Positions 2,012 to 47,893 of a stretch of 64,000 nt of DNA are shown piece by piece. The translations under genes were made by a program, and so were the position numbers. The notes under the pieces were generated by a model, which saw nothing but the letters and a program-made list of their open reading frames with translations, ran no database searches and was not told the DNA's origin. Origin of the DNA: a virus; the IMG/VR virus record IMGVR_UViG_3300045988_111815, positions 80,893-144,892 of that record, one strand, 5' to 3'. Numbering within the stretch: the stretch's first letter is position 1; each line of letters opens with the position of its first letter.

Positions 2012-4813
2012 ATGAGATTACGAATCATAAAAAATCGTCCGGTATTCGCTCCTGGTGGTAGTGTTCAGGATGTTACACAACAGGCTGATACGACATCTAA
2101 TCCATATATTGATATGGACATGTCTAATGTTCCTGGTATGAGTGAGATAAATTCGGAAATAGATACGATGGAGGCGGGATTTGACAATATTATAGGTCCT
2201 GACTATTCTACTATAAAAATGCAAGAACCTTCTATTCCGACTATGAATGTAAGTAATAACAATACGTTCGATCCTAAGTCTATGCCCAAAGGAACTATTG
2301 TTAGTGTTGATAAAGAAGAAAATCAATCAAATGAAAAGCGATCACAAGATGGGAATCCTCTGGATCCTATGACTGCTCCTTATTATTCTCCTGATCTTGG
2401 AGGTCGAGCTCAAATGTTCGGTACAAGTCTTGGTCGGATAAGAGCAGGTAATAAGGTCGGCGCTAATGTGGCACAGGCTGCTTTTTCTGGATTGAGCCTT
2501 GGCATGGGTCTTGCTCGTAATATCATGGGAGCTTCATCTGCTGCGTATGCAGCCAGCAGAGACGAGCAGGCGGCAAGGGAAAAGCTCGAAAAAGAGCGCC
2601 GGCAGCAGTTTATCCGATGGGAACGTGAAGGAGGTGGCGTTAATCTTGGAAATGGTCAGAGAATAGATACGTCTGATTTGACAGGAGAATACATTTACCC
2701 TCTTCCTAAATCTATGGAGGATAATGCTAATGTTGAGATAGAAAAAGGAGAATACGTTTCGACTCCGGATGATGTTGGTCCTATGGAGGCAAAAGGCAAC
2801 AGGCATGAAGACGGTGGCACTCCCGTTGATTTGCCAGAAGCTCATATTATTTCAGATTACCGTACTATCGATGATGATTTCGCTTCTTACGTAAGGGAAA
2901 ATTATGGCATTAGCGCTACGGAAAAAGATACGTATGCTACGCTTCTTGATAGATATAAGAAAAAAATAGGATTGTCCGAAAAGTATGATGATCAGGAACG
3001 TGTTTTCAAGAGGTTAGAAAAGAATAAGGATGTTAAGGATAAAAATACTTCTGAGTTGAATAAGTCCATTCTTTCCAAGTACGTAAATGATAATCAAAAG
3101 GAAATAGACGAACTTGAGGTGCAATCCAGGTCTTTTGCTGATATTGTCTATAACAAACAAGAGGAATCCAAGCGCCAAGAAAAGATAGATGCTTTTTTTA
3201 GGGATGGCGGGGTTGTTGATCTGAATCAGGTAAAGAAACAAGCTAAGGCTTTTAATATTGCAGAATCAGATGCTAAGAACTGGATATATGACGAGTATGT
3301 TAAGCAAACCAGAAAAATGGCTGAAGGTGGACCTACTCAGAAGGAGCTGGAGGAACTTAGAAAGAATGCTATCGGCTACAATAAGCTTATCAATCAGTTA
3401 TTTGGACGAACTCTTAATATGACTGTATCTGATGTTAGTGGTCGTGAGCAGATTCTTAATCCTGATTCCAGTGTCAATGCCAACCAGAATCTCCAACATA
3501 GAAGCAATTTAGGATACGGCAGGGTAAATGATAAGGCGGTATCTAATTTGCTCGACATAAACCGATGGGCTAACAAGTACAATACGGATGGTGATTTTGA
3601 TACAGAAGGTTTCCAGAAAGAATACAACAGGCAATTAAATGCATTGTGGGCGTTAGCTGATGTAGGCGCTATTACGAATGCTGATGCAGCCAAGAAATTC
3701 AGAGATGAATACGGATTCTGGGGCCAGGACGCCGGAAGCTACGGAGGGAATCAGGCTTATAATTCATTTGCCGTAGATGATAAGTTTGGTCAGACAACAG
3801 CTACTCGTTCTTATTATGGGTTGGACGTTGTTTCGGCAGAGCAAAAAAGATTGTTAAACGAAAAAGGGATAAAGAATTATGTTGACTTATTTGGTGATAA
3901 ATCTGATGCCGCTAAGAAGATTCTGGGCTCCGATTATAATAAGTTTGTTGCTTTAAGAGATAGTGGGTTAATGCCGGAAATAGACTTCGTTCTTGAGTCT
4001 GTTAAACCAGAAATGAAGCCTATTGAGGCCGGTCCCATAGCACCAGGCCTTACACCGCCTAAGATTGGATCTACTGGAAGGATAGAGGTAAAACCGAAAG
4101 CAAGTACGCCTACGACTGCAACCGACACCGATACAGAGGAGGTGGTTGAAGACAACGGACCTAAAGGACAGGGCAGACCGGCGGCGTTCGGTCCTATTTT
4201 CCCGGAGATGCTGAGAACGCTCGATACAGGCTTGGAGATAGAAGGTCTGGAAAGGCATCAGGCTCCGAGAATAGACCCGGTTCTTCAATCTGCTGATCAG
4301 TATATCAACGAGCTCAACCGCGCGACATCGGCTCAGTTGGACGCAGTAGGTGACGTGCCCGACTCCCAGCGCTCCGCTATTCTGGCTAATATGAACGCCA
4401 TAGCCGGAAGCAATATAGCCAAGTACATTAACGAAGTAAATTTCAATAACGCAAGGCAAATAAACGAAGCTGATAGATTCAATGAAATGGCTTATGTTCA
4501 GACAGACGATAAGAACATAGCGGAAAGGCAACGTTATGAATCTGGGTTATTGAAGGCTATGGCTATAAGGGATGAAAATCTTGCTCGTTATTATGACAGC
4601 ATAAACAGTGAGATACAGAATAAGTTCAATGTTCGTACATCGTTGAATACCATAGCTTCCATAGCTCCGAATATGAGAATGCTTCCAAGTGGTCAAATTA
4701 TTTACGTTCAAGGTAATCAGGATGTGATGAATATGGGTGATTATTCTACACCTTACTTGAGAAGTTTAAATGAAGAAGATGATGAAATTAAAAGAAGAAG
4801 GAGGACCAAATAG
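2012..4813 (+). CDS. Large hypothetical virion/tail-associated protein (~934 aa)
   Basis: ORF 1997..4813 in the track begins at a GTG; the likely start is ATG 2012 (MRLRIIKN…). It is the first of four coupled large ORFs, which in crAss-like phages is the virion/cargo gene position. No catalytic motif seen. Confidence 0.65.
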   Translation: MRLRIIKNRPVFAPGGSVQDVTQQADTTSNPYIDMDMSNVPGMSEINSEIDTMEAGFDNIIGPDYSTIKMQEPSIPTMNVSNNNTFDPKSMPKGTIVSVDKEENQSNEKRSQDGNPLDPMTAPYYSPDLGGRAQMFGTSLGRIRAGNKVGANVAQAAFSGLSLGMGLARNIMGASSAAYAASRDEQAAREKLEKERRQQFIRWEREGGGVNLGNGQRIDTSDLTGEYIYPLPKSMEDNANVEIEKGEYVSTPDDVGPMEAKGNRHEDGGTPVDLPEAHIISDYRTIDDDFASYVRENYGISATEKDTYATLLDRYKKKIGLSEKYDDQERVFKRLEKNKDVKDKNTSELNKSILSKYVNDNQKEIDELEVQSRSFADIVYNKQEESKRQEKIDAFFRDGGVVDLNQVKKQAKAFNIAESDAKNWIYDEYVKQTRKMAEGGPTQKELEELRKNAIGYNKLINQLFGRTLNMTVSDVSGREQILNPDSSVNANQNLQHRSNLGYGRVNDKAVSNLLDINRWANKYNTDGDFDTEGFQKEYNRQLNALWALADVGAITNADAAKKFRDEYGFWGQDAGSYGGNQAYNSFAVDDKFGQTTATRSYYGLDVVSAEQKRLLNEKGIKNYVDLFGDKSDAAKKILGSDYNKFVALRDSGLMPEIDFVLESVKPEMKPIEAGPIAPGLTPPKIGSTGRIEVKPKASTPTTATDTDTEEVVEDNGPKGQGRPAAFGPIFPEMLRTLDTGLEIEGLERHQAPRIDPVLQSADQYINELNRATSAQLDAVGDVPDSQRSAILANMNAIAGSNIAKYINEVNFNNARQINEADRFNEMAYVQTDDKNIAERQRYESGLLKAMAIRDENLARYYDSINSEIQNKFNVRTSLNTIASIAPNMRMLPSGQIIYVQGNQDVMNMGDYSTPYLRSLNEEDDEIKRRRRTK

Positions 4814-15087: not shown

Positions 15088-16335
15088 CATACTCCCATCG
15101 CTAAAGCAAACGGGATTCTTGGATACAAACGCAAGAAACCCCGATATTACTATCGTTGGAATTACTCTTACTCTCCAATTCGGAAATGCCCTTCCGAAGT
15201 ATATTACGGGCTGCAAGAATATCACGGTCGTTTACCGCTCCGCACGCCGGGCATACCCACGTGCGGTCGCGTAACGACAGTCCTTTATTAATGCAGCCAC
15301 ATTCGCAAGTTTTGGAAGAAGGATACCATTTATTAATCTTGTGTATCGTTACTCCATACTTTGAAGCAACATACGTAAGTTTATCAATAAAAGAAGAATG
15401 ACTGAGATCAGAAACTTTCTTTCCCCACAAACGTTTCATTCCTTCAATGTTTAGATCTTCAATAAAAATATAATCATACTGTTTGCATAACTGGTGTGCT
15501 AATCCCCATTGAAAATCTGATCGAAGATCGTTTATTTTACGATACGTTTGTTGGAGTTCAAACAGTCTCCTTCTTCTATTGTTGGATCCTTTCTTTGCAT
15601 TAGAAATCCGTTTATTTAGTTTTCTAATCTTGTTTTGATATTGTTTAAAGAATAATGGAGAATCGATTTTGCTACCATCGCTTTTAGTTAGATAAGTTTT
15701 CAGCCCAAAATCCAATCCGATAGATGCACCATCATGTGTCTTTCTATAAGAGTTTGAATGATTATGATCTGTAACTATAATCAAACTAAAACGGGAACAG
15801 GTTTCTCTAACTATTCTAATTTGTTTAACATTACCTTCGTAGACTCTACTGTATGAAAATCTAAATCGTTTCTTTCCTTTGTTAATTGTTAGACAATTCC
15901 CATTCAGGGTAAACCCTCCTTGTTTGAAAACAAAAGAGTTAAAACAATCAGCTCTTTTGAACTTAGGAGGTCGTTTAGCCAACTTCTTAAAGAAACGATT
16001 ATAAGATTCATCAAGACGTTCAAGTATTTCTTGTGTTGTTTGAGAATGAAGAAGATTTCTTTTAATTCTTTTGGTAAAATGTTTCTTCATTTTACCAATT
16101 GATATATATTTCCTAAACAGTTTGTAGTATCTACGTTGTAGAGCTAACGCATGATTCCATACAAAACAACATTCACGAAGCATTTTGTCAAGATACTTCG
16201 TTTTCTTGGAATGGTATATGTTGTATTTGTATGAAATCATTTTTATCTGTAATTTTGATTCAAAATTAATCAAACCAATTCATCCACCTTCTAAAGTATG
16301 GTGGTTTTGTTGGTTAAATTATCATAATTTCTATT
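15040..16335 (-). mobile_element. IS200/IS605-family TnpB-only (IS1341-like) insertion element; boundaries approximate
   Basis: Solitary tnpB on the strand opposite the flanking operon. No Y1 (HUH) TnpA is adjacent. The 74-nt upstream spacer contains hairpin CCACC…GGTGG (16284-16304). The 3' coding end contains a perfect palindrome TTCGGAA…TTCCGAA. Exact left/right ends could not be determined by eye. Confidence 0.5.
15101..16273 (-). CDS. tnpB: TnpB (OrfB) RNA-guided endonuclease-type transposon protein, IS605 family (390 aa)
   Basis: RuvC-I: IGLDFGLKTYLT. RuvC-II: IFIEDLNIEGM. Zn finger: CECGC…CPACG. RuvC-III: DRDILAARNI. N-terminal region is OrfB-like (…CFVWNHALALQRRYY…). Confidence 0.85.
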   Translation of the reverse strand: MINFESKLQIKMISYKYNIYHSKKTKYLDKMLRECCFVWNHALALQRRYYKLFRKYISIGKMKKHFTKRIKRNLLHSQTTQEILERLDESYNRFFKKLAKRPPKFKRADCFNSFVFKQGGFTLNGNCLTINKGKKRFRFSYSRVYEGNVKQIRIVRETCSRFSLIIVTDHNHSNSYRKTHDGASIGLDFGLKTYLTKSDGSKIDSPLFFKQYQNKIRKLNKRISNAKKGSNNRRRRLFELQQTYRKINDLRSDFQWGLAHQLCKQYDYIFIEDLNIEGMKRLWGKKVSDLSHSSFIDKLTYVASKYGVTIHKINKWYPSSKTCECGCINKGLSLRDRTWVCPACGAVNDRDILAARNILRKGISELESKSNSNDSNIGVSCVCIQESRLL

Positions 16336-35929: not shown

Positions 35930-37630
35930 TTATTTTTTGTCATCTCCTTTTAACTTCTTTAAAGTATCTGCAATCGGAAGCTGATCAATGACTCCCAATG
36001 CCGGAGCGACGGTCTTAACAACATTGTTAAGGAAATTACCGGTACTGTTCTGACCGCCGTCAAATACCGTGATATTTCCGAGGTTAATGTGCTCGAACGC
36101 CTTAACCTGTTCTCCAGCAATTTCTTTCCACTGATTAACCATCTTGTACTGGATGGCTATCTGAGGATTGGATTCTGCTGCTTCCACCATAGCCTTAAAT
36201 CCGTCGGCTTCTGCCATCAACGACTTTTTCTTACCTTCGGCTTCTGCCTCCAGCTTCATCTGAATAGCTTTTGCTTCCGCTTCTGCTTTTGCCAAATGTG
36301 CTGCTGCTTCGGCATCAGCCCGACGTTTGATTTTCTCAGCTTCAGCATCAGCTTGCAACATAGCCTCCTGCTTCTGAATTTCAGCCGGCACAATCTTTTC
36401 AGCTTTAAGCGCAGCTTGAACCTTCTTAGCTTTAGCTTCTTCCACTTCTTTATCAGCAAGCTCTTTTGCCGTTTTCACAGCCGCTTCCGATTTAACTCTC
36501 TCTTCTCCGGCTTTCTTTTCTGATTGAGCTTTGATAACCTGTAGCTCTGATTCTGATACAGCAACCTCTTTCTGGGCATTGTTATAACCCACAGATGCGT
36601 TTTTCTCAGCTTCAGCTTTCTTGATCTGAGCTTCGGAATCTTGGATTGCTATAGCTGCCTGTTTATCAGCTTCAGCTTTATTCTTCCCGACTTCTTCCAT
36701 TCTTTCGGCTTCAGCTTTGTTTACTTCAAGTTCTGCCTTAGATTTTGCGATCGCTGATTCCTTATCAGCCAAAGTCTTTGCAATAACCGCAGCCCTATCT
36801 CTATCGGCTTGAGCTACACCGATCTGTTTTTCTTTATCGGTTAAAGCCAAAGCTACTTCTTTTTCTTTCTTTGTTTCAGCTACTACCGTTTCCTTTTCTT
36901 TTTCAGTATAGGCAATTTGAATCTCTTGCTCTTTTTGGGTATTAGCTACAGCCGTTTCTTTTTCCTTTTGCTGTACAGCAATCTTAATAGCACCCAGCTT
37001 TTCCTGTTCTTCGATATTAGCCTGTGCTTCGTTCAGGGCCTTACTTTCAGCTTCTTTGCCAAGATTCATGATATAGCCGGCTTCGTCTCTGATGTCACTG
37101 ATGTTGATATTTAGGAGGTAAAGACCTAACTTATTAAGTTCGTTATCAATGTTTTTTCTTGCCTTATCCAAAAACTCATCCCTGTCAGAATTAAGTTTTT
37201 CAATCGTCATTTCAGCAATGATCAAACGCATTTGGCCATAAACAATATCCGTAATAAGATTTTCAGTAGATTCAGTATCCATCCCCAAAAGCCTTTCTGC
37301 TGCATTCTGCATAATTTCAGGATTTGTGCTGATTGCTACTGTAATAGTAGTAGGTACATCCACTCTGATATTTTGAGACGACAAAGCACCGGTGAGCCTA
37401 CAATCTATTTGCATAGGCTCCATAGACAAAATATCATAGCTTTGAATAATAGGCAAGACGAATGCCGCTCCACCATGATATAATTTCGCCGATTTCTTTT
37501 CCCCACCTGTCTTACCATAAACGACCAAGACTTGATTAGGCTTACATCTACGATACCTTGATAAGACTCCGATGATTGTCAAAATAATCACTACAGCTAA
37601 AATAGCTGACACGTACATGATTGTTGTCAT
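35930..37630 (-). CDS. Flotillin-like SPFH/band-7 protein (FloT/YuaG-like, 566 aa)
   Basis: N-terminal TM helix. VLVVYGKTGG…GGAAFVLPIIQ and DIRDEAGYIMNLG match flotillin signatures. Long Ala/Glu/Lys-rich coiled-coil with EA-type repeats. C-terminal ITVFDGG. Confidence 0.85.
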   Translation of the reverse strand: MTTIMYVSAILAVVIILTIIGVLSRYRRCKPNQVLVVYGKTGGEKKSAKLYHGGAAFVLPIIQSYDILSMEPMQIDCRLTGALSSQNIRVDVPTTITVAISTNPEIMQNAAERLLGMDTESTENLITDIVYGQMRLIIAEMTIEKLNSDRDEFLDKARKNIDNELNKLGLYLLNINISDIRDEAGYIMNLGKEAESKALNEAQANIEEQEKLGAIKIAVQQKEKETAVANTQKEQEIQIAYTEKEKETVVAETKKEKEVALALTDKEKQIGVAQADRDRAAVIAKTLADKESAIAKSKAELEVNKAEAERMEEVGKNKAEADKQAAIAIQDSEAQIKKAEAEKNASVGYNNAQKEVAVSESELQVIKAQSEKKAGEERVKSEAAVKTAKELADKEVEEAKAKKVQAALKAEKIVPAEIQKQEAMLQADAEAEKIKRRADAEAAAHLAKAEAEAKAIQMKLEAEAEGKKKSLMAEADGFKAMVEAAESNPQIAIQYKMVNQWKEIAGEQVKAFEHINLGNITVFDGGQNSTGNFLNNVVKTVAPALGVIDQLPIADTLKKLKGDDKK

Positions 37631-37661: not shown

Positions 37662-38360
37662 TTAGATACTTAATTCTCCTTCTTCGTATTTTATATTCAC
37701 CTTGTCACCGTTTTTGTAATTTTTTCCAGACAAGCACCTCACTCTCATCTGTTCCTGTCTTCCATTTTTCGAAATATTTACCATATAATGATTCTTCCCT
37801 GATCTAAATACTATCTCCACTTCTCTGCCATTTAAATCTTCCGGACATTCGTACACCATTTCTTGCTTTAACTTAAGAAGTAACTTATATACGTAAAACA
37901 AAACGATAAAGAAAAACGACCCTATTACGACCCCTATTAAATGGGAACCCGAAAAGTATGTGGTCCAGCTATATCCAAGAATAAAATGTGTTATGCCTTT
38001 GAATGATATGATGTCCGACAAAGACATGCTTAAATCAGAAGCGTTATCAATGTCAATATCCGTATCCAGATCAGATCCTAATATCGACAATAAAAACTGT
38101 ATAACAAAAGCAAATGACGCTATTAAAGCCATGCATAAAATTATATCATTTCCCATATCCTTGATGGATTCTGTATCATAATCAATAATAACGATATTGA
38201 ATTTTTGTTCCACCATCGCATCAAGCTCAATTCGATCAATAGAATCTAATCCAAGTTCTTTAAACGACACATCTTCTTCATGAACTATATCCATTTCCGA
38301 ATTAAGAAACTGAGTAATAATTATATCCTCTATTATCTTTCTAATTCTTACTTTTTCCAT
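37662..38360 (-). CDS. NfeD-like membrane protein with N-terminal acyl-carrier-protein-like domain (232 aa)
   Basis: Residues ~1-70 align by eye to ACP (SFKELGLDSIDRIELDAMVEQKFNIVI matches [24 protein letters not shown], including the DSL/DSI serine). These are followed by 2-3 TM helices and a C-terminal beta-rich OB-like segment (…GREVEIVFRSGKNHYMVNI…) typical of short NfeD/YuaF partners of flotillin. Confidence 0.55.
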   Translation of the reverse strand: MEKVRIRKIIEDIIITQFLNSEMDIVHEEDVSFKELGLDSIDRIELDAMVEQKFNIVIIDYDTESIKDMGNDIILCMALIASFAFVIQFLLSILGSDLDTDIDIDNASDLSMSLSDIISFKGITHFILGYSWTTYFSGSHLIGVVIGSFFFIVLFYVYKLLLKLKQEMVYECPEDLNGREVEIVFRSGKNHYMVNISKNGRQEQMRVRCLSGKNYKNGDKVNIKYEEGELSI

Positions 38361-39061
38361 TGCTTTCTAATTTTGTTAAATAAATATGTTTTTATGTTTT
38401 TCAATCGTTCTTTGTCTGTTTCCGCACTTCCGGTAAACAAATAATCCGGATTGCCTTTAGCCGGCGGCGTAGGCAATTTAGATACGGCAAACAACCAATC
38501 CATTTCCTTATTCTTCTTAGGCTCCAAATAAGGCTCGGTAGCGATCTTAAATTTTTCAGCTATTAAGTCAAAGAGCTTTGAGTTTTTAAGGTTCATATGG
38601 ACTGAAAAAGCCTGAGAAGGCGGTTTCCATATGAAGTTACATAAGCTCATTGTGTAATCTCCTGACTCTGCTATATAAGATTCCGTTACTTGAAGTATGA
38701 CCTCTTTCTTAAATGAAGTATTACCCATAAACCAACACAATCTGGATTCCGCTTCTTTTCTGCTGACACCTATGTCTTTTGAATATGATTCGTACATTCC
38801 TATCATAATCTTCAACGTTTCCAGAACCTCGTCTGTCATTTCCGGTGTCTCTATATAATTCACAAAAGACGTTCCTTTGTTGGTCAATCTCATCACGCCT
38901 GATTTTAATTTCTCAACCAGGCCAAGCTCTATATATCTACCAGCATCTTCTTCCTGCATGGCTTCGATCATAACCGAATCCTTCTGTCTTATGGCAAGAA
39001 GATTAGCGAGATCATTAGGAGTCATGTCTGATGCTGTAAGTTGTCTGAAATTGATGTACAT
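38348..39061 (-). CDS. Hypothetical protein (237 aa)
   Basis: ORF only. Confidence 0.5.
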   Translation of the reverse strand: MYINFRQLTASDMTPNDLANLLAIRQKDSVMIEAMQEEDAGRYIELGLVEKLKSGVMRLTNKGTSFVNYIETPEMTDEVLETLKIMIGMYESYSKDIGVSRKEAESRLCWFMGNTSFKKEVILQVTESYIAESGDYTMSLCNFIWKPPSQAFSVHMNLKNSKLFDLIAEKFKIATEPYLEPKKNKEMDWLFAVSKLPTPPAKGNPDYLFTGSAETDKERLKNIKTYLFNKIRKQWKK

Positions 39062-39285: not shown

Positions 39286-39888
39286 TTAACTGTTGTACCC
39301 TTCTTTGATAATCGAATTTCTACCGGTAGACACCGACTGACGGAGATCATCATGTACAGAATCTACCGTAGAATACTTGTTTCTGGTTGTAAAAATAACT
39401 TCCAGCATCTCCTTGTAATCACCTAAAGCCACTTCGTATCTTGGATCCACTTTGGCTTTTCTTTCAGCCTCGGCATTACTTTTAGCCAGCTCTCGGTCGA
39501 GAAGGTCTTCTTTGATCCGGTCAGCAATCATATCAAGTTCTTTTTTAATAACTTCTCCTGCTGCCCGAAGTTGACCTTCTACGTCACCAAGCTGGTCTTG
39601 GACGGTACCTATTTCTTTCTTTAGACGATCGTATTCGTTAATCATACCCATATCACCTGCATAGCCGGAAAAGTCCTTGATTATTCTGGTTCCTTCTTTA
39701 AGGAGCTCAATGACTCGTCTTTTGCGTTCTCTGCTTATTAAAGACGGAAGACGATAATTCATATCCGCTACTGCTTTATCATGTATGGAGTTGATTAAAA
39801 ACATCTCTCTTTCATCCCCTGCGAACTCAGTAAGAACCAAAAGGAACTTACTTATCAGGTATTCGTTTTCTTCTACGGTAAGTCTCAT
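39286..39888 (-). CDS. Hypothetical protein (200 aa)
   Basis: ORF immediately downstream of the DnaB-like helicase. Function unknown. Confidence 0.5.
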   Translation of the reverse strand: MRLTVEENEYLISKFLLVLTEFAGDEREMFLINSIHDKAVADMNYRLPSLISRERKRRVIELLKEGTRIIKDFSGYAGDMGMINEYDRLKKEIGTVQDQLGDVEGQLRAAGEVIKKELDMIADRIKEDLLDRELAKSNAEAERKAKVDPRYEVALGDYKEMLEVIFTTRNKYSTVDSVHDDLRQSVSTGRNSIIKEGYNS

Positions 39889-39901
39889 ACGTTTCTTTTT
39901 T

Positions 39902-41035
39902 TTAATATACTGACTGTTCTTCCTTTACCTCTTGTTCTTGATCTTGATTGTTCGTAACGTCTTCCACAGTATAGAGCTTGGGCGGCGTCGGCGGCTGGTT
40001 GGGGTTCACGAACTTCGTCCCTCCCTCCCCGTACATCCATCCATGCCCCGGCAGGATCTCTGGGTGGATTGTATTAGTAAGCTCTTCCATACTAACTTGC
40101 CTTACCTTCAGTATATGATGAAACACCAGTCCGGCTGTCCTGAATGATGTTTTGTTTTCAGTTTTAAACCGGTCAAGAGTCTGATACCAGTCTTTCCCAA
40201 ATATCATATACTTGTCCAGCCCGTATCTGCGAGGATTATGCAAACCTATCATTAACGTACATAGTTGCCCCAGCGTATCAGACTGATAAAAGTCAGAAAG
40301 ACGGGGAGGCTGCTCTTGAGGGCTTTTTATCCTTCCTTCTATCTCTCTGTTGAATTGGGATATGATGAGGAAAAATATGTTTTTATATACTAATTTAGCC
40401 TCGTTCATAACCGCCACCAAATCATCTATAGCCGACTTAGGATCCAATCCCATTCTTTTTATCAAAGCAATATGATCGACTTTAAATATTATAAGACGTT
40501 TGTCTTTATGCTTAGTAGCTATATGATATACAGCCGCCTCAAACTCTTTTACCGTACACGGAGCGTCGATGTATATTATATTATTTCTGATTTCACCTTG
40601 AAGGATTTCAAACATCCTCATCTCTTCTACTGTATTAGAATCTTGCCTTCTTAATATTTCAGGAGCCCGTTTTTTCATATCCTGACTCATTCTGCGAAGA
40701 AGAAGATCTTGAGGATTCATTTCGAACTCGCAATTGACAAGAAAATAATCTTCTGCTTGTGGGTTGATCATCGGATTCATCACATTTTCCAATATCTTTT
40801 GGGCCACATACGATTTACCCACAGATGGCCGAGCCCCTATGGCAATAGCATGCTGAGGGAAAATACCTCCAAGCAAAGCCTCATCAATATAATCGTATCC
40901 GGTTTTAGCGGGGATAAGCTCTCCCCGCCTGTATTTTAAGATATTCTCATACGCCTCTTCCATAACCTGTTTGGAGGTTTTGAATATCCTTCTTATATCT
41001 ATCCTATTTGCTATCTCCTCGTGCATTTTTGTCAC
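39902..41035 (-). CDS. DnaB-like replicative helicase, RecA-fold C-terminal domain (377 aa)
   Basis: IDEALLGGIFPQHAIAIGARPSVGKS (Walker A in DnaB context). Walker B-like IIFKVDHIAL. Confidence 0.75.
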   Translation of the reverse strand: MTKMHEEIANRIDIRRIFKTSKQVMEEAYENILKYRRGELIPAKTGYDYIDEALLGGIFPQHAIAIGARPSVGKSYVAQKILENVMNPMINPQAEDYFLVNCEFEMNPQDLLLRRMSQDMKKRAPEILRRQDSNTVEEMRMFEILQGEIRNNIIYIDAPCTVKEFEAAVYHIATKHKDKRLIIFKVDHIALIKRMGLDPKSAIDDLVAVMNEAKLVYKNIFFLIISQFNREIEGRIKSPQEQPPRLSDFYQSDTLGQLCTLMIGLHNPRRYGLDKYMIFGKDWYQTLDRFKTENKTSFRTAGLVFHHILKVRQVSMEELTNTIHPEILPGHGWMYGEGGTKFVNPNQPPTPPKLYTVEDVTNNQDQEQEVKEEQSVY

Positions 41036-45515: not shown

Positions 45516-46040
45516 TTATAAAGCTTTCTCATATCTGTCAATTATTTCAATAATTAATCTACCTCTTTCTTTAATCATCCCCCTGCTTTCCATATCCAGC
45601 ACCTTCTTTACCGCATACTTCCATACAAAAGGAAATTCTGTTTCAAGTTTATCAAATTCCATCCGGTCAAGATACATGTCGAATACCGTATGCTCCGATT
45701 CATGTAGAAAAACTATATTATCTCTGCAAGTGGCAACCGACTTATATATCCTTTTTGGAAGTATGTGACATACGTTACATACTGTAGGAAAATGAATAGC
45801 CTTACCGGTCATAGACATTCGAATACTATTCAACTCCTCCAGCATAAGACGAAAAAACCCGGATAAATCCGGGTTCTCTAACTTTTTCTTCTTGCTGCTG
45901 TTTTTAATGGATGTAATTCTGTTTTTTTTCTTCGGAGTCAACTCTTTGCTCCTGCAAGCCTGGCATAAGCCATGACTTCTTATCATCACTTTTCGTCCGC
46001 ATCGTTCGCAGACGTATAGCTTCTTTTCCTTGCTTTCCAT
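45516..46040 (-). CDS. Zn-ribbon plus HNH-like endonuclease protein (174 aa)
   Basis: CERCGRK…CQAC, then CNVCHILPKR…DNIVFLHESEH (H-N-H arrangement). Confidence 0.4.
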   Translation of the reverse strand: MESKEKKLYVCERCGRKVMIRSHGLCQACRSKELTPKKKNRITSIKNSSKKKKLENPDLSGFFRLMLEELNSIRMSMTGKAIHFPTVCNVCHILPKRIYKSVATCRDNIVFLHESEHTVFDMYLDRMEFDKLETEFPFVWKYAVKKVLDMESRGMIKERGRLIIEIIDRYEKAL

Positions 46041-46225
46041 TCGAATAATAATGATATTATTGAAAAGAACAATCCCGCTGAAGCCAGTAGATAAGGTACG
46101 TTCATTAATAATTTAGATACCTCGTCTGTCTTAATCACTATCAGAAGGAAAGCGCCTGCTGAAAGCAATGATATTATCGCCACAACAAGCGCTATGTTGG
46201 AAACTACATCATCCTTACTCTTCAC
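45986..46225 (-). CDS. Small membrane protein (79 aa)
   Basis: Two hydrophobic helices. Confidence 0.35.
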   Translation of the reverse strand: MKSKDDVVSNIALVVAIISLLSAGAFLLIVIKTDEVSKLLMNVPYLLASAGLFFSIISLLFEWKARKRSYTSANDADEK

Positions 46226-46685
46226 TCTTCTTCTCGCCTAATTTTTCAGCTCCCTTCTGAAGATCGTATTTGAATACGTCTATGATCTTCGTTTCAGCAA
46301 TAGCTTCGCAATTCCAGTCGCCCAACGTACCCTGCATGCCTTTAGTCAACACAGCTTCGGCATCCTTGGGATTGCCGGCCTGGACATACATATAGCATGG
46401 AGTTTTCTTTTCTTTACCTTTCTTTTCATTCAGTGTAATGTAATTTACCTTACACTTATACCAGTACTCAGCTTCTCCGTTGAAGAAGAGTTCCGACACT
46501 TTAATAGGATTTATTTTAACAATGTCGAACACTTGAAATAAATCCTTGAAAATCTCTAAAGATCTTGATTCTGCCTCTGTATAAGATAAGGCATCTACCA
46601 AATACTTTTCAGTTACTTTCTTTTTTTTGCCGTTCTCGATATTATCAATCTCGGCTTTTACCGTAATTTCAAACCAGCGATTCAT
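46215..46685 (-). CDS. Hypothetical protein (156 aa)
   Basis: ORF only. Confidence 0.45.
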   Translation of the reverse strand: MNRWFEITVKAEIDNIENGKKKKVTEKYLVDALSYTEAESRSLEIFKDLFQVFDIVKINPIKVSELFFNGEAEYWYKCKVNYITLNEKKGKEKKTPCYMYVQAGNPKDAEAVLTKGMQGTLGDWNCEAIAETKIIDVFKYDLQKGAEKLGEKKSEE

Positions 46686-46696
46686 TGTATTAATAT

Positions 46697-46972
46697 TTAA
46701 TTAGTTGATTTCTTTCCTTTCTCTATACTATTTTTAAATCTTTCAGAACACCACTGCAAAACGTCCATCATCATCATTTCATTATTAGATAAGATGCCTT
46801 TTATAACTAACGCCAATTGATACTGTGACATTCTTTGGCTCATATCAAATCTTCTTTCCTCTTCATTTACTATCGTAGCCACGAAATACTTACACCCCTC
46901 TAAGTGCGTCAGGGCTTCAATCATAGCTTCTTTTATCTCTTTTTCTTCCATTCTGTTTGTTTTTTTGGACAA
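46697..46972 (-). CDS. Hypothetical protein (91 aa)
   Basis: Preceded by a Bacteroides-type box (plus caaagata at 46991-46998). Confidence 0.4.
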   Translation of the reverse strand: MSKKTNRMEEKEIKEAMIEALTHLEGCKYFVATIVNEEERRFDMSQRMSQYQLALVIKGILSNNEMMMMDVLQWCSERFKNSIEKGKKSTN

Positions 46973-47024
46973 AGATATGTCTTTTGATAATAAAAAAGAT
47001 TCAAAATGATTTAATTTAGCTTAA

Positions 47025-47693
47025 TTACTGCTCTTTTGATTCGTCCGGTATAGGCATGTCAAACTTTTTTCTGATAAACGACTCTGTTTCTTCATTGAAT
47101 GGATAGGCCTCCTTGATAAAATTCATAGCTACCTCCATGTCACCGTCTGCTATATCTTTATACCTTTCAAAGATACCAACCAGGTCATTGTTGTATGAAC
47201 GTTCTTGTTTTATGTTGTACACGTATTTCAATACCCTGTCTTTGATTTCATTGGCTTTTTTCACAGTATCATTGAAAGAATTTATACTTTCCAATTCTGG
47301 ATCTTTGTTTTCCTTGTTTACCTTATCAAACTCTTCCTTGCTATATCCCGCTTCTCCTGTAATGGCTGGGCAAACACTTCCATTTATGATCCAAAACTGC
47401 TCATACGATCCTATCAGAAACTTTGATTCCATTTTAAATGCATTATATTTAATAAGCAAATTAGCCACCTCTGTTGCACCTTCTATGGTTCTAAAACCGA
47501 TGCCGATATCTTTTAACATAAATACTGGAACTTCAGTTCTTGGATACACGACTTCTTTTTTGTTCTTTATATTCCAGTTTTTAGCTTCAATTGGAATACC
47601 TTTACCAGCAAGCTCTTTGTCTATATACAGATATATCTCTTTGCATGTCAATGACACAATCTCATCTCTGCTTAAATCAAAAACTGTTTTCAT
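47025..47693 (-). CDS. Hypothetical protein (222 aa)
   Basis: ORF only. Confidence 0.5.
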   Translation of the reverse strand: MKTVFDLSRDEIVSLTCKEIYLYIDKELAGKGIPIEAKNWNIKNKKEVVYPRTEVPVFMLKDIGIGFRTIEGATEVANLLIKYNAFKMESKFLIGSYEQFWIINGSVCPAITGEAGYSKEEFDKVNKENKDPELESINSFNDTVKKANEIKDRVLKYVYNIKQERSYNNDLVGIFERYKDIADGDMEVAMNFIKEAYPFNEETESFIRKKFDMPIPDESKEQ

Positions 47694-47893
47694 TTCTTTT
47701 TATTTATTAAATTAAACAATCTACCTCTTTGTTCGGGCTCCGTATATTCAACCCATATATCGGCTGCCACATTTCTAAGAAATTCCATAAAGTCTTGATG
47801 ATCCCTGTATTCAGCAGAATCAACTTTTCTCACAAAACTTAGAATTTCCTTTAACATCTTATTGTTTTCTTCAAGAAGTTCTCTGTCGGTCAT
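47690..47893 (-). CDS. Hypothetical protein (67 aa)
   Basis: ATGA overlap with the downstream gene. Confidence 0.35.
   Translation of the reverse strand: MTDRELLEENNKMLKEILSFVRKVDSAEYRDHQDFMEFLRNVAADIWVEYTEPEQRGRLFNLINKKK

Follow-up and report, generated by a model that had tools for sequence, protein, structure and literature searches.

A single-genome fusion of an acyl carrier protein to an NfeD-like membrane protein in a human-gut phage is probably a deletion allele of two overlapping genes

Proteins of the YuaF/YqiJ type, the operon partners of SPFH2 proteins, have three hydrophobic stretches and an all-beta domain, and their similarity to NfeD is very low (PMC2636767). In the yuaF-yuaG(floT) operon of Bacillus subtilis and the yqiJ-yqiK operon of Escherichia coli such a protein, with three hydrophobic helices and an OB domain, is encoded directly upstream of a flotillin (PMC2636767), and the phage locus described here is built likewise. 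The bacterial NfeD2/flotillin operons have no gene for an acyl carrier protein (ACP), whereas the phage pair is preceded by one. All three genes are annotated in csAssE-Sib (OR575929.1), a 151-kb phage from the human gut, as 'acyl carrier protein' (WOZ57347.1, 83 aa), 'transmembrane protein' (WOZ57346.1, 164 aa) and 'flotillin family protein' (WOZ57345.1); we found no paper on this phage or on a phage ACP-flotillin module. Our subject is a stretch of 64,000 nucleotides from IMG/VR record IMGVR_UViG_3300045988_111815 (positions 80,893 to 144,892), referred to below as the window, and csAssE-Sib is 93.7% identical to the region of interest in DNA over 7 kb. The original prediction for this DNA was that one ORF joins an ACP-like N-terminus to a membrane protein, as a novel fusion architecture or a recruited module. 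The ORF is present as claimed: it lies at 37662..38360 on the minus strand, starts with ATG and encodes 232 aa without interruption. How did it arise, and is it an evolved protein?

The csAssE-Sib locus is orthologous to that of the window, with the same gene order and the same neighbours, namely the 237-aa gene, a DnaB-like helicase and a PD-(D/E)XK nuclease. It differs in having two overlapping genes of 83 and 164 aa, which an ORF listing confirmed as separate, whereas the window has a single 232-aa ORF and lacks 37 bp and, with them, helix IV of the ACP. The two csAssE-Sib genes overlap by 11 nt (ATGGGAAGTGA), the ATG of the membrane protein gene lying 8 nt before the ACP stop in the +1 frame, and this ATG-stop overlap suggests that the ACP and NfeD-like genes are translationally coupled in the relatives. 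In a pairwise DNA alignment the 37 nt absent from the window are the sole indel across the junction of the two genes. They are flanked by the short direct repeats AAAGATATG and AAGGATATG and code for the C-terminus of the ACP (…TDLVYKTITEGYGK, helix IV); the flanks of the deletion are otherwise colinear and ordinary. Because 37 is 36 + 1, the loss moved the ACP frame into the frame of the membrane protein, exactly at its Met1, and the product is ACP residues 1-68 followed in frame and without a linker by membrane protein residues 1-164. The NfeD-like gene has kept its own ATG, which is now Met69 of the fused ORF (38154-38156). The features of the locus are collected in Table 1.

Table 1. Features of the fused ORF and of the genes on either side of it (window coordinates).
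Feature	Position	Strand	Evidence
Flotillin (SPFH2/FloT-YqiK type), 566 aa, 31 nt downstream of the fused ORF	35930..37630	-	Pfam, NCBIfam
NfeD-like (YuaF/YqiJ-type) membrane protein gene, 164 aa + stop; TM1, acidic D-rich loop, SFKG, TM2, TM3, C-terminal OB beta-barrel	37662..38156	-	
Deletion junction, minus-strand CCATCAA followed by GGATATGGGAA	38150..38167	-	Pairwise alignment and comparison with IMG/VR relatives
ACP-derived part, residues 1-68, helices I-III and LGLDSID	38157..38360	-	Pfam PP-binding, PHROG ACP, csAssE-Sib ACP alignment
TCT codon of Ser40 (DSI), candidate 4'-phosphopantetheine attachment serine	38241..38243	-	Aligned with the DSL serine of solved ACPs
237-aa upstream gene of unknown function; stop overlaps the ACP start by 13 nt	38348..39061	-	ORF listing

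The proposal of a novel architecture was not borne out, since the fusion is absent from every homologue that we examined. Every alignment of the best-matching IMG/VR relatives to the window breaks at the junction, and both repeats with the DNA between them are kept in 86 of the 88 relatives scanned. The junction 18-mer has four exact matches in IMG/VR, each in unrelated sequence, and a 31-mer junction pattern has zero matches in the JGI metagenomes. Among 80 IMG/VR genomes fetched around the ACP gene, 73 have an intact ACP of 82 or 83 aa and 78 an intact membrane protein gene of 162 or 164 aa, and the fusion occurs at none of the 80 loci. When the fused protein was searched against 5.8 billion proteins, the 42 matches included none that was fused and none that covered more than 71% of the query. 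The 83-aa ACP as query gave 957 proteins (119 of the 120 among the matches listed are 83 aa long), and one 83-aa ACP protein occurs on at least 1000 contigs. With the membrane protein as query, an exhaustive HMMER search gave 202 family representatives; among the matches listed they are about 150-195 aa long, match from near residue 1 and have no N-terminal extension, and the fusion is found in 0 of the 150 representatives listed. A more distant phage clade (L082), whose membrane protein is 61% identical, also has separate, overlapping genes, here for an 88-aa PP-binding protein and a 169-aa membrane protein, and then the flotillin. A search of viral contigs for related loci with two database proteins (P0018 and P0167) as queries found none. 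Among the sequences compared, the 37-bp deletion is private to this genome.

The assignment of the N-terminus to the ACP/PP-binding family, by contrast with the proposed architecture, was upheld. The fused ORF matches PP-binding of Pfam with an E-value of 6.7e-5 and 23.5 bits, above the gathering score (GA) of 20.8; it is also matched by PHROG 5934 'acyl carrier protein' (3.3e-6) and, over residues 10-71, by TIGR00517 acyl_carrier (E 1.9e-6), and the phage ACP scores below all NCBIfam ACP equivalog cut-offs. The predicted DSI serine is present as Ser40 in the motif LGLDSID, whose counterpart in solved ACPs is LGADSLD; this alignment was made with the intact allele. The intact allele of csAssE-Sib reaches 27.7 bits against PP-binding, over profile positions 10-65 of 67 (56 of 67), and matches 88 solved ACP sequences end to end (best E 6e-7), with LGLDSLD opposite LGADSLD. 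The orthologue in the L082 clade is closer still to canonical ACP (Vibrio ACP, E 1.5e-14; E. coli AcpP, 5e-13). Because both this orthologue and the intact allele match solved or AcpP sequences, the phage gene can be taken, on the strength of these alignments, to descend from a bona fide ACP. The fused ORF, however, lacks the helix IV segment (TDLVYKTITEGYGK in relatives) and the stop of the ancestral 83-aa gene, so that its ACP-like stretch consists of helices I-III only. The AF2 model of this part, which is of moderate confidence and was computed from a shallow alignment of near-identical sequences, is not a compact four-helix ACP bundle, and on this point too the original prediction of a carrier module found no support.

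For the membrane protein, the label NfeD-like holds in part. It is supported by fold, architecture and synteny with a flotillin in an operon-like context, and not by the Pfam model: neither NfeD (PF01957) nor YqiJ matched the window protein even at an E-value of 5, and just one of 72 family members matched the NfeD model, at 6e-5. The AF2 model of the 164-aa protein (pLDDT 89.7) has helices at 2-25, 52-69 and 72-96 and a beta-barrel at 112-163. This is the layout of the NfeD2 type, in which three hydrophobic helices at the N-terminus precede an all-beta OB domain in about 140-175 aa altogether. Foldseek against the PDB returned generic OB-fold matches only, none significant; structurally, the C-terminal domain is closest to the solved C-domains of NfeD, with 3wwv among the top matches. 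Distant homologues with 35-42% identity are found on contigs with ordinary cellular neighbours, for example FAD synthetase and sigma-54. Four of them (L084, L086-L088) lie directly upstream of a Band_7/Flot gene and have no ACP gene, and one further homologue stands at a contig end, with its downstream gene outside the contig. The pairing with a flotillin is also seen in L082 and L083. Between TM1 and a nearly invariant SFKG, the family has a conserved DxDxDxD loop (38052-38078, residues 27-35 of the membrane protein), for which AF2 gives a pLDDT below 50 and hence predicts disorder. No Pfam family describes this loop, which could bind cations or a partner.

The downstream flotillin has the domains Band_7 (PF01145, 2.5e-25) and Flot (PF15975, 1.5e-9) and matches the NCBIfam FloT model at 9.6e-43, under its equivalog cut-off. 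A scan of genome contigs with the flotillin found only a Planctomycetia MAG with 33% identity, which is uninformative on the host. The ACP, NfeD-like and flotillin genes stand within a replication block that also encodes a DnaB-like helicase, a PD-(D/E)XK nuclease, an SF2 helicase and a primase-like DUF6371 protein. Gene junctions in the block are overlapping or tight, and from the overlap of the 237-aa gene with the ACP start the two belong to one transcription unit. That upstream gene is intact in 82 of 82 loci, with a piN/piS of 0.05; weighed as an Sfp-type phosphopantetheinyl transferase (PPTase), it gave no Pfam or PHROG match. Nor did we find a setting for the lipid- or acyl-handling function that the original prediction had offered as one possibility: the annotation of csAssE-Sib includes no phosphopantetheinyl transferase, acyltransferase or Fab-type gene, and a Pfam scan of 45 further window ORFs showed no PPTase or lipid-handling family in the best 25 of 29 matched families, the other four having E-values above 0.0055. 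With no PPTase found in the phage, the ACP could be modified only by the AcpS of the host. Elsewhere in the window, a TnpB/IS605 OrfB-type gene (OrfB_IS605 and Cas12f1-like TNB; 15104-16240, minus strand) stands on the opposite strand within the block of large structural genes, and two TnpB genes are annotated in csAssE-Sib. The gene downstream of the DnaB-like helicase (39286-40040, minus strand) encodes 251 aa in csAssE-Sib (WOZ57350.1) and in 26 of 82 loci compared, and 200 aa in the window and most other relatives; the window has a separate 51-aa ORF at 39885-40040 that overlaps the 3' end of the helicase gene. The difference looks like a start-site or frameshift polymorphism.

The three genes differ markedly in how they are maintained in natural populations. 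Across the IMG/VR haplotypes the piN/piS of the ACP gene is 0.49, as against 0.05-0.10 for eight neighbours, including the membrane protein (0.07) and the flotillin (0.05), so the ACP is the least constrained gene of the block. Between the two phage clades the ACP is 37% identical, the membrane protein 61%, the 237-aa protein 76%, the DnaB-like helicase 81% and the flotillin 82%. Disrupted ACP alleles were found in seven of the 80 genomes (L024, L033, L031, L076, L040, L034 and L045; the ACP at ~4001-4252 in each). The lesions comprise TAA nonsense codons at E22 and Q52 (two different backgrounds for each), an insertion of 4 bp in L040 at the same AAAGATATG site as the window deletion, one stop-loss extension and one allele in which the first 15 ACP residues do not match. 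Of 35 IMG/VR haplotypes, 34 retain Ser40, as does the divergent L082 ACP; among 119 distinct database variants, 21 have P, F or Y at this position, and these are spread over many haplotype backgrounds. Eight different sequencing runs supplied the contigs, 28-77 kb long, on which such substitutions lie (L098-L105).

The phosphopantetheine site and helix II are normally the most conserved stretch of an ACP. Among the 119 near-identical 83-aa variants (from P0043-P0162), 105 of 196 rare substitutions fall in residues 39-51, where 30.7 would be expected; the variants are not independent, and binomial p-values for this hot spot are only indicative. The most variable positions are D39N/E/Y, S40P/F/Y, L41F/P, E45K/V/A, L46P and E47K (window 38205-38246, codons 39-52). 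A diversity-generating retroelement (DGR) was considered as the cause of the hot spot and rejected, because the substitutions in codons 39-47 span all base types and not just adenines. An annotated DGR (VR/TR/IMH and reverse transcriptase) is present in csAssE-Sib at 45751-47816 (L093), outside the matched region, and its target is a putative tail-fibre gene. Recoding of stop codons in the apparently broken ACP alleles was likewise rejected: the stops are TAA codons derived from GAA or CAA, and the window has no tRNA or suppressor genes. There is also no recognisable slippery site at TATGGGAAGTGA that would point to programmed frameshifting in the wild-type phages.

Where it is present, the phage flotillin is under strong purifying selection (piN/piS 0.05), yet 15 of the 80 genomes have no flotillin gene and 13 have one that is truncated or split; among the lesions are at least seven different large deletions and some smaller truncating ones. 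Five database proteins (P0008, P0019, P0024, P0030 and P0036) are chimeras in which the ACP or the membrane protein is joined to the C-terminus of the flotillin. The NfeD-like gene is intact in all 15 genomes that have no phage flotillin. That it is kept there suggests that the NfeD-like protein may act with a flotillin of the host or on its own.

What, then, is the fused ORF? The two-gene state of the ancestor, the family to which each half belongs and a deletion found in this genome alone are all shown by the comparisons, and we consider it probable (roughly 0.8) that the ORF is a chimeric allele, produced by a private deletion of the slippage type that fused two normally separate, translationally coupled genes. 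In phages of this lineage, which resemble csAssE-Sib, measure about 150 kb and come from the human gut, three accessory genes stand in a row in the replication block: a free 83-aa ACP, the 164-aa NfeD-like protein and the flotillin. In the genome of the window the deletion between AAAGATATG and AAGGATATG took the last 15 codons of the ACP, that is helix IV, together with the region before the stop. Without helix IV the ACP moiety is probably unable to form a four-helix bundle, and because of this the fused allele would effectively be a loss-of-function allele of the ACP. Most likely the fusion is one more ACP-inactivating lesion, a reading in keeping with the weak constraint on this gene and its frequent inactivation in natural populations. 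Production of the NfeD-like protein has probably continued, within the fused chain or from the ATG at Met69, and the protein would still partner the flotillin. Given three TM helices and an OB domain in the cytoplasm, the N-terminus of the chain would lie on the periplasmic side, a poor site for a carrier domain that depends on AcpS and acyl donors of the cytoplasm.

Three other explanations have to be weighed against the deletion allele. The resemblance to ACP might be a matter of chance or composition, the N-terminus being a mere extension of a membrane protein. The truncated copy does reach just 23.5 bits, and the NCBIfam equivalog cut-offs are not attained; yet the intact allele scores higher and aligns its DSL serine with that of the 88 solved ACPs, the L082 orthologue has E-values of about 1e-13 to 1e-14 against AcpP of Vibrio and E. 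coli, and the N-terminus is a gene of its own in all relatives, so we regard this explanation as refuted. It might instead be that the fusion is functional and neomorphic, a stable chain that tethers a (holo-)carrier to the NfeD/flotillin platform and handles lipids or recruits proteins. One could cite for it the in-frame junction without a linker, the intact Ser40 and helix II, the PP-binding score above threshold, and the fact that the wild-type ACP and NfeD-like genes are adjacent and overlapping in two phage clades, which suggests a functional link. Against it stand the absence of the fusion from all homologues examined, the loss of helix IV, a model that does not show an ACP bundle, and the predicted N-out topology, by which the ACP would end up in the periplasm. 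Moreover, the ACP gene is the least constrained of the block and often knocked out, the bacterial NfeD-like/flotillin pairs do without an ACP, and neither a PPTase nor an acyl-handling gene is found nearby. We consider a functional fusion very improbable.

An artefact deserves somewhat more weight, although we think it unlikely. The two-gene arrangement would in that case be real, and the 37 bp would have been lost in assembly, sequencing or amplification, for instance as a microhomology chimera of MDA or PCR. The allele is indeed unique, being absent from the 80 IMG/VR genomes, from protein databases based on ENA, Logan, JGI and NCBI, and from JGI metagenome contigs; its end points in short direct repeats would also favour template switching in vitro, and the deletion is known here from assembled sequence. 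The sequence AGATATGACTGATCTTGTTTACAAAACAATAACAGAA, if found in the source reads, would mark an artefact or a minority variant. On the other hand, a clean deletion of 37 bp between repeats is what replication slippage in vivo typically leaves, and the sequence around it is colinear and ordinary. Many comparable natural lesions are known at this locus, including the 4-bp insertion of L040 at that very site and a number of different flotillin deletions.

The recurrent inactivation of the ACP calls for a further, more tentative suggestion. It is possible, though in our view doubtful, that the phage ACP is a conditionally costly accessory, that loss of its attachment site or recognition helix is recurrently selected, and that the fusion in the window is one such escape allele. 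If this is true, the ACP could be a carrier-protein decoy that engages AcpS or fatty-acid enzymes of the host through helix II, or a protein that is sensed by host defence. It would be disabled again and again, by S40P/F/Y, by changes at D39 and E45, by L41P, L46P and E47K, by nonsense codons and by small indels, while its NfeD-like partner stays under strong purifying selection even where the flotillin is deleted.

Taken at face value, the ORF would be a lipid-carrier domain tethered to a bacterial 'raft' scaffold, and what we find is a private deletion allele. The fusion is a mutant allele and not an evolved protein architecture, and the case warns against over-reading gene fusions that are seen in single genomes. 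Its components are of kinds already known, a type II ACP, a YuaF/YqiJ-type NfeD partner and a flotillin, and the ACP and flotillin are annotated in a GenBank phage that is 94% identical. What remains of interest is that phages of a widespread human-gut group have a host-type NfeD-like/flotillin pair and, in front of it, an ACP of their own. The ACP evolves fast and is often inactivated, the flotillin is strongly conserved where present but missing or broken in roughly one genome in three, and the NfeD-like protein is almost always kept. This three-gene pattern leads to testable hypotheses on how phages manipulate the membranes and acyl metabolism of their hosts.

Each component can finally be set beside its described counterpart. 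Like the type II AcpP proteins (PF00550) and the ACPs of PHROG 5934, the phage ACP has about 80 aa, is acidic and has a DSL motif at the start of helix II; it differs in that it evolves fast, with helix II and the attachment serine as its most variable part, and in the window it is truncated and fused. Unlike bacterial NfeD2, the phage membrane protein is encoded in a replication module, has no Pfam NfeD or YqiJ match and carries the strongly acidic DxDxDxD loop between TM1 and TM2. There is a precedent for an N-terminal soluble domain on an NfeD membrane/OB module in the NfeD1b/STOPP proteins, such as PH1510 of P. horikoshii (PMC4208085, PMC2636767), the group to which the C-domain 3wwv among the top structural matches belongs. 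In these, however, the added domain is a ClpP-like protease that is conserved across many genomes, whereas the ACP fusion carries a truncated domain and is the product of a deletion in a single genome.
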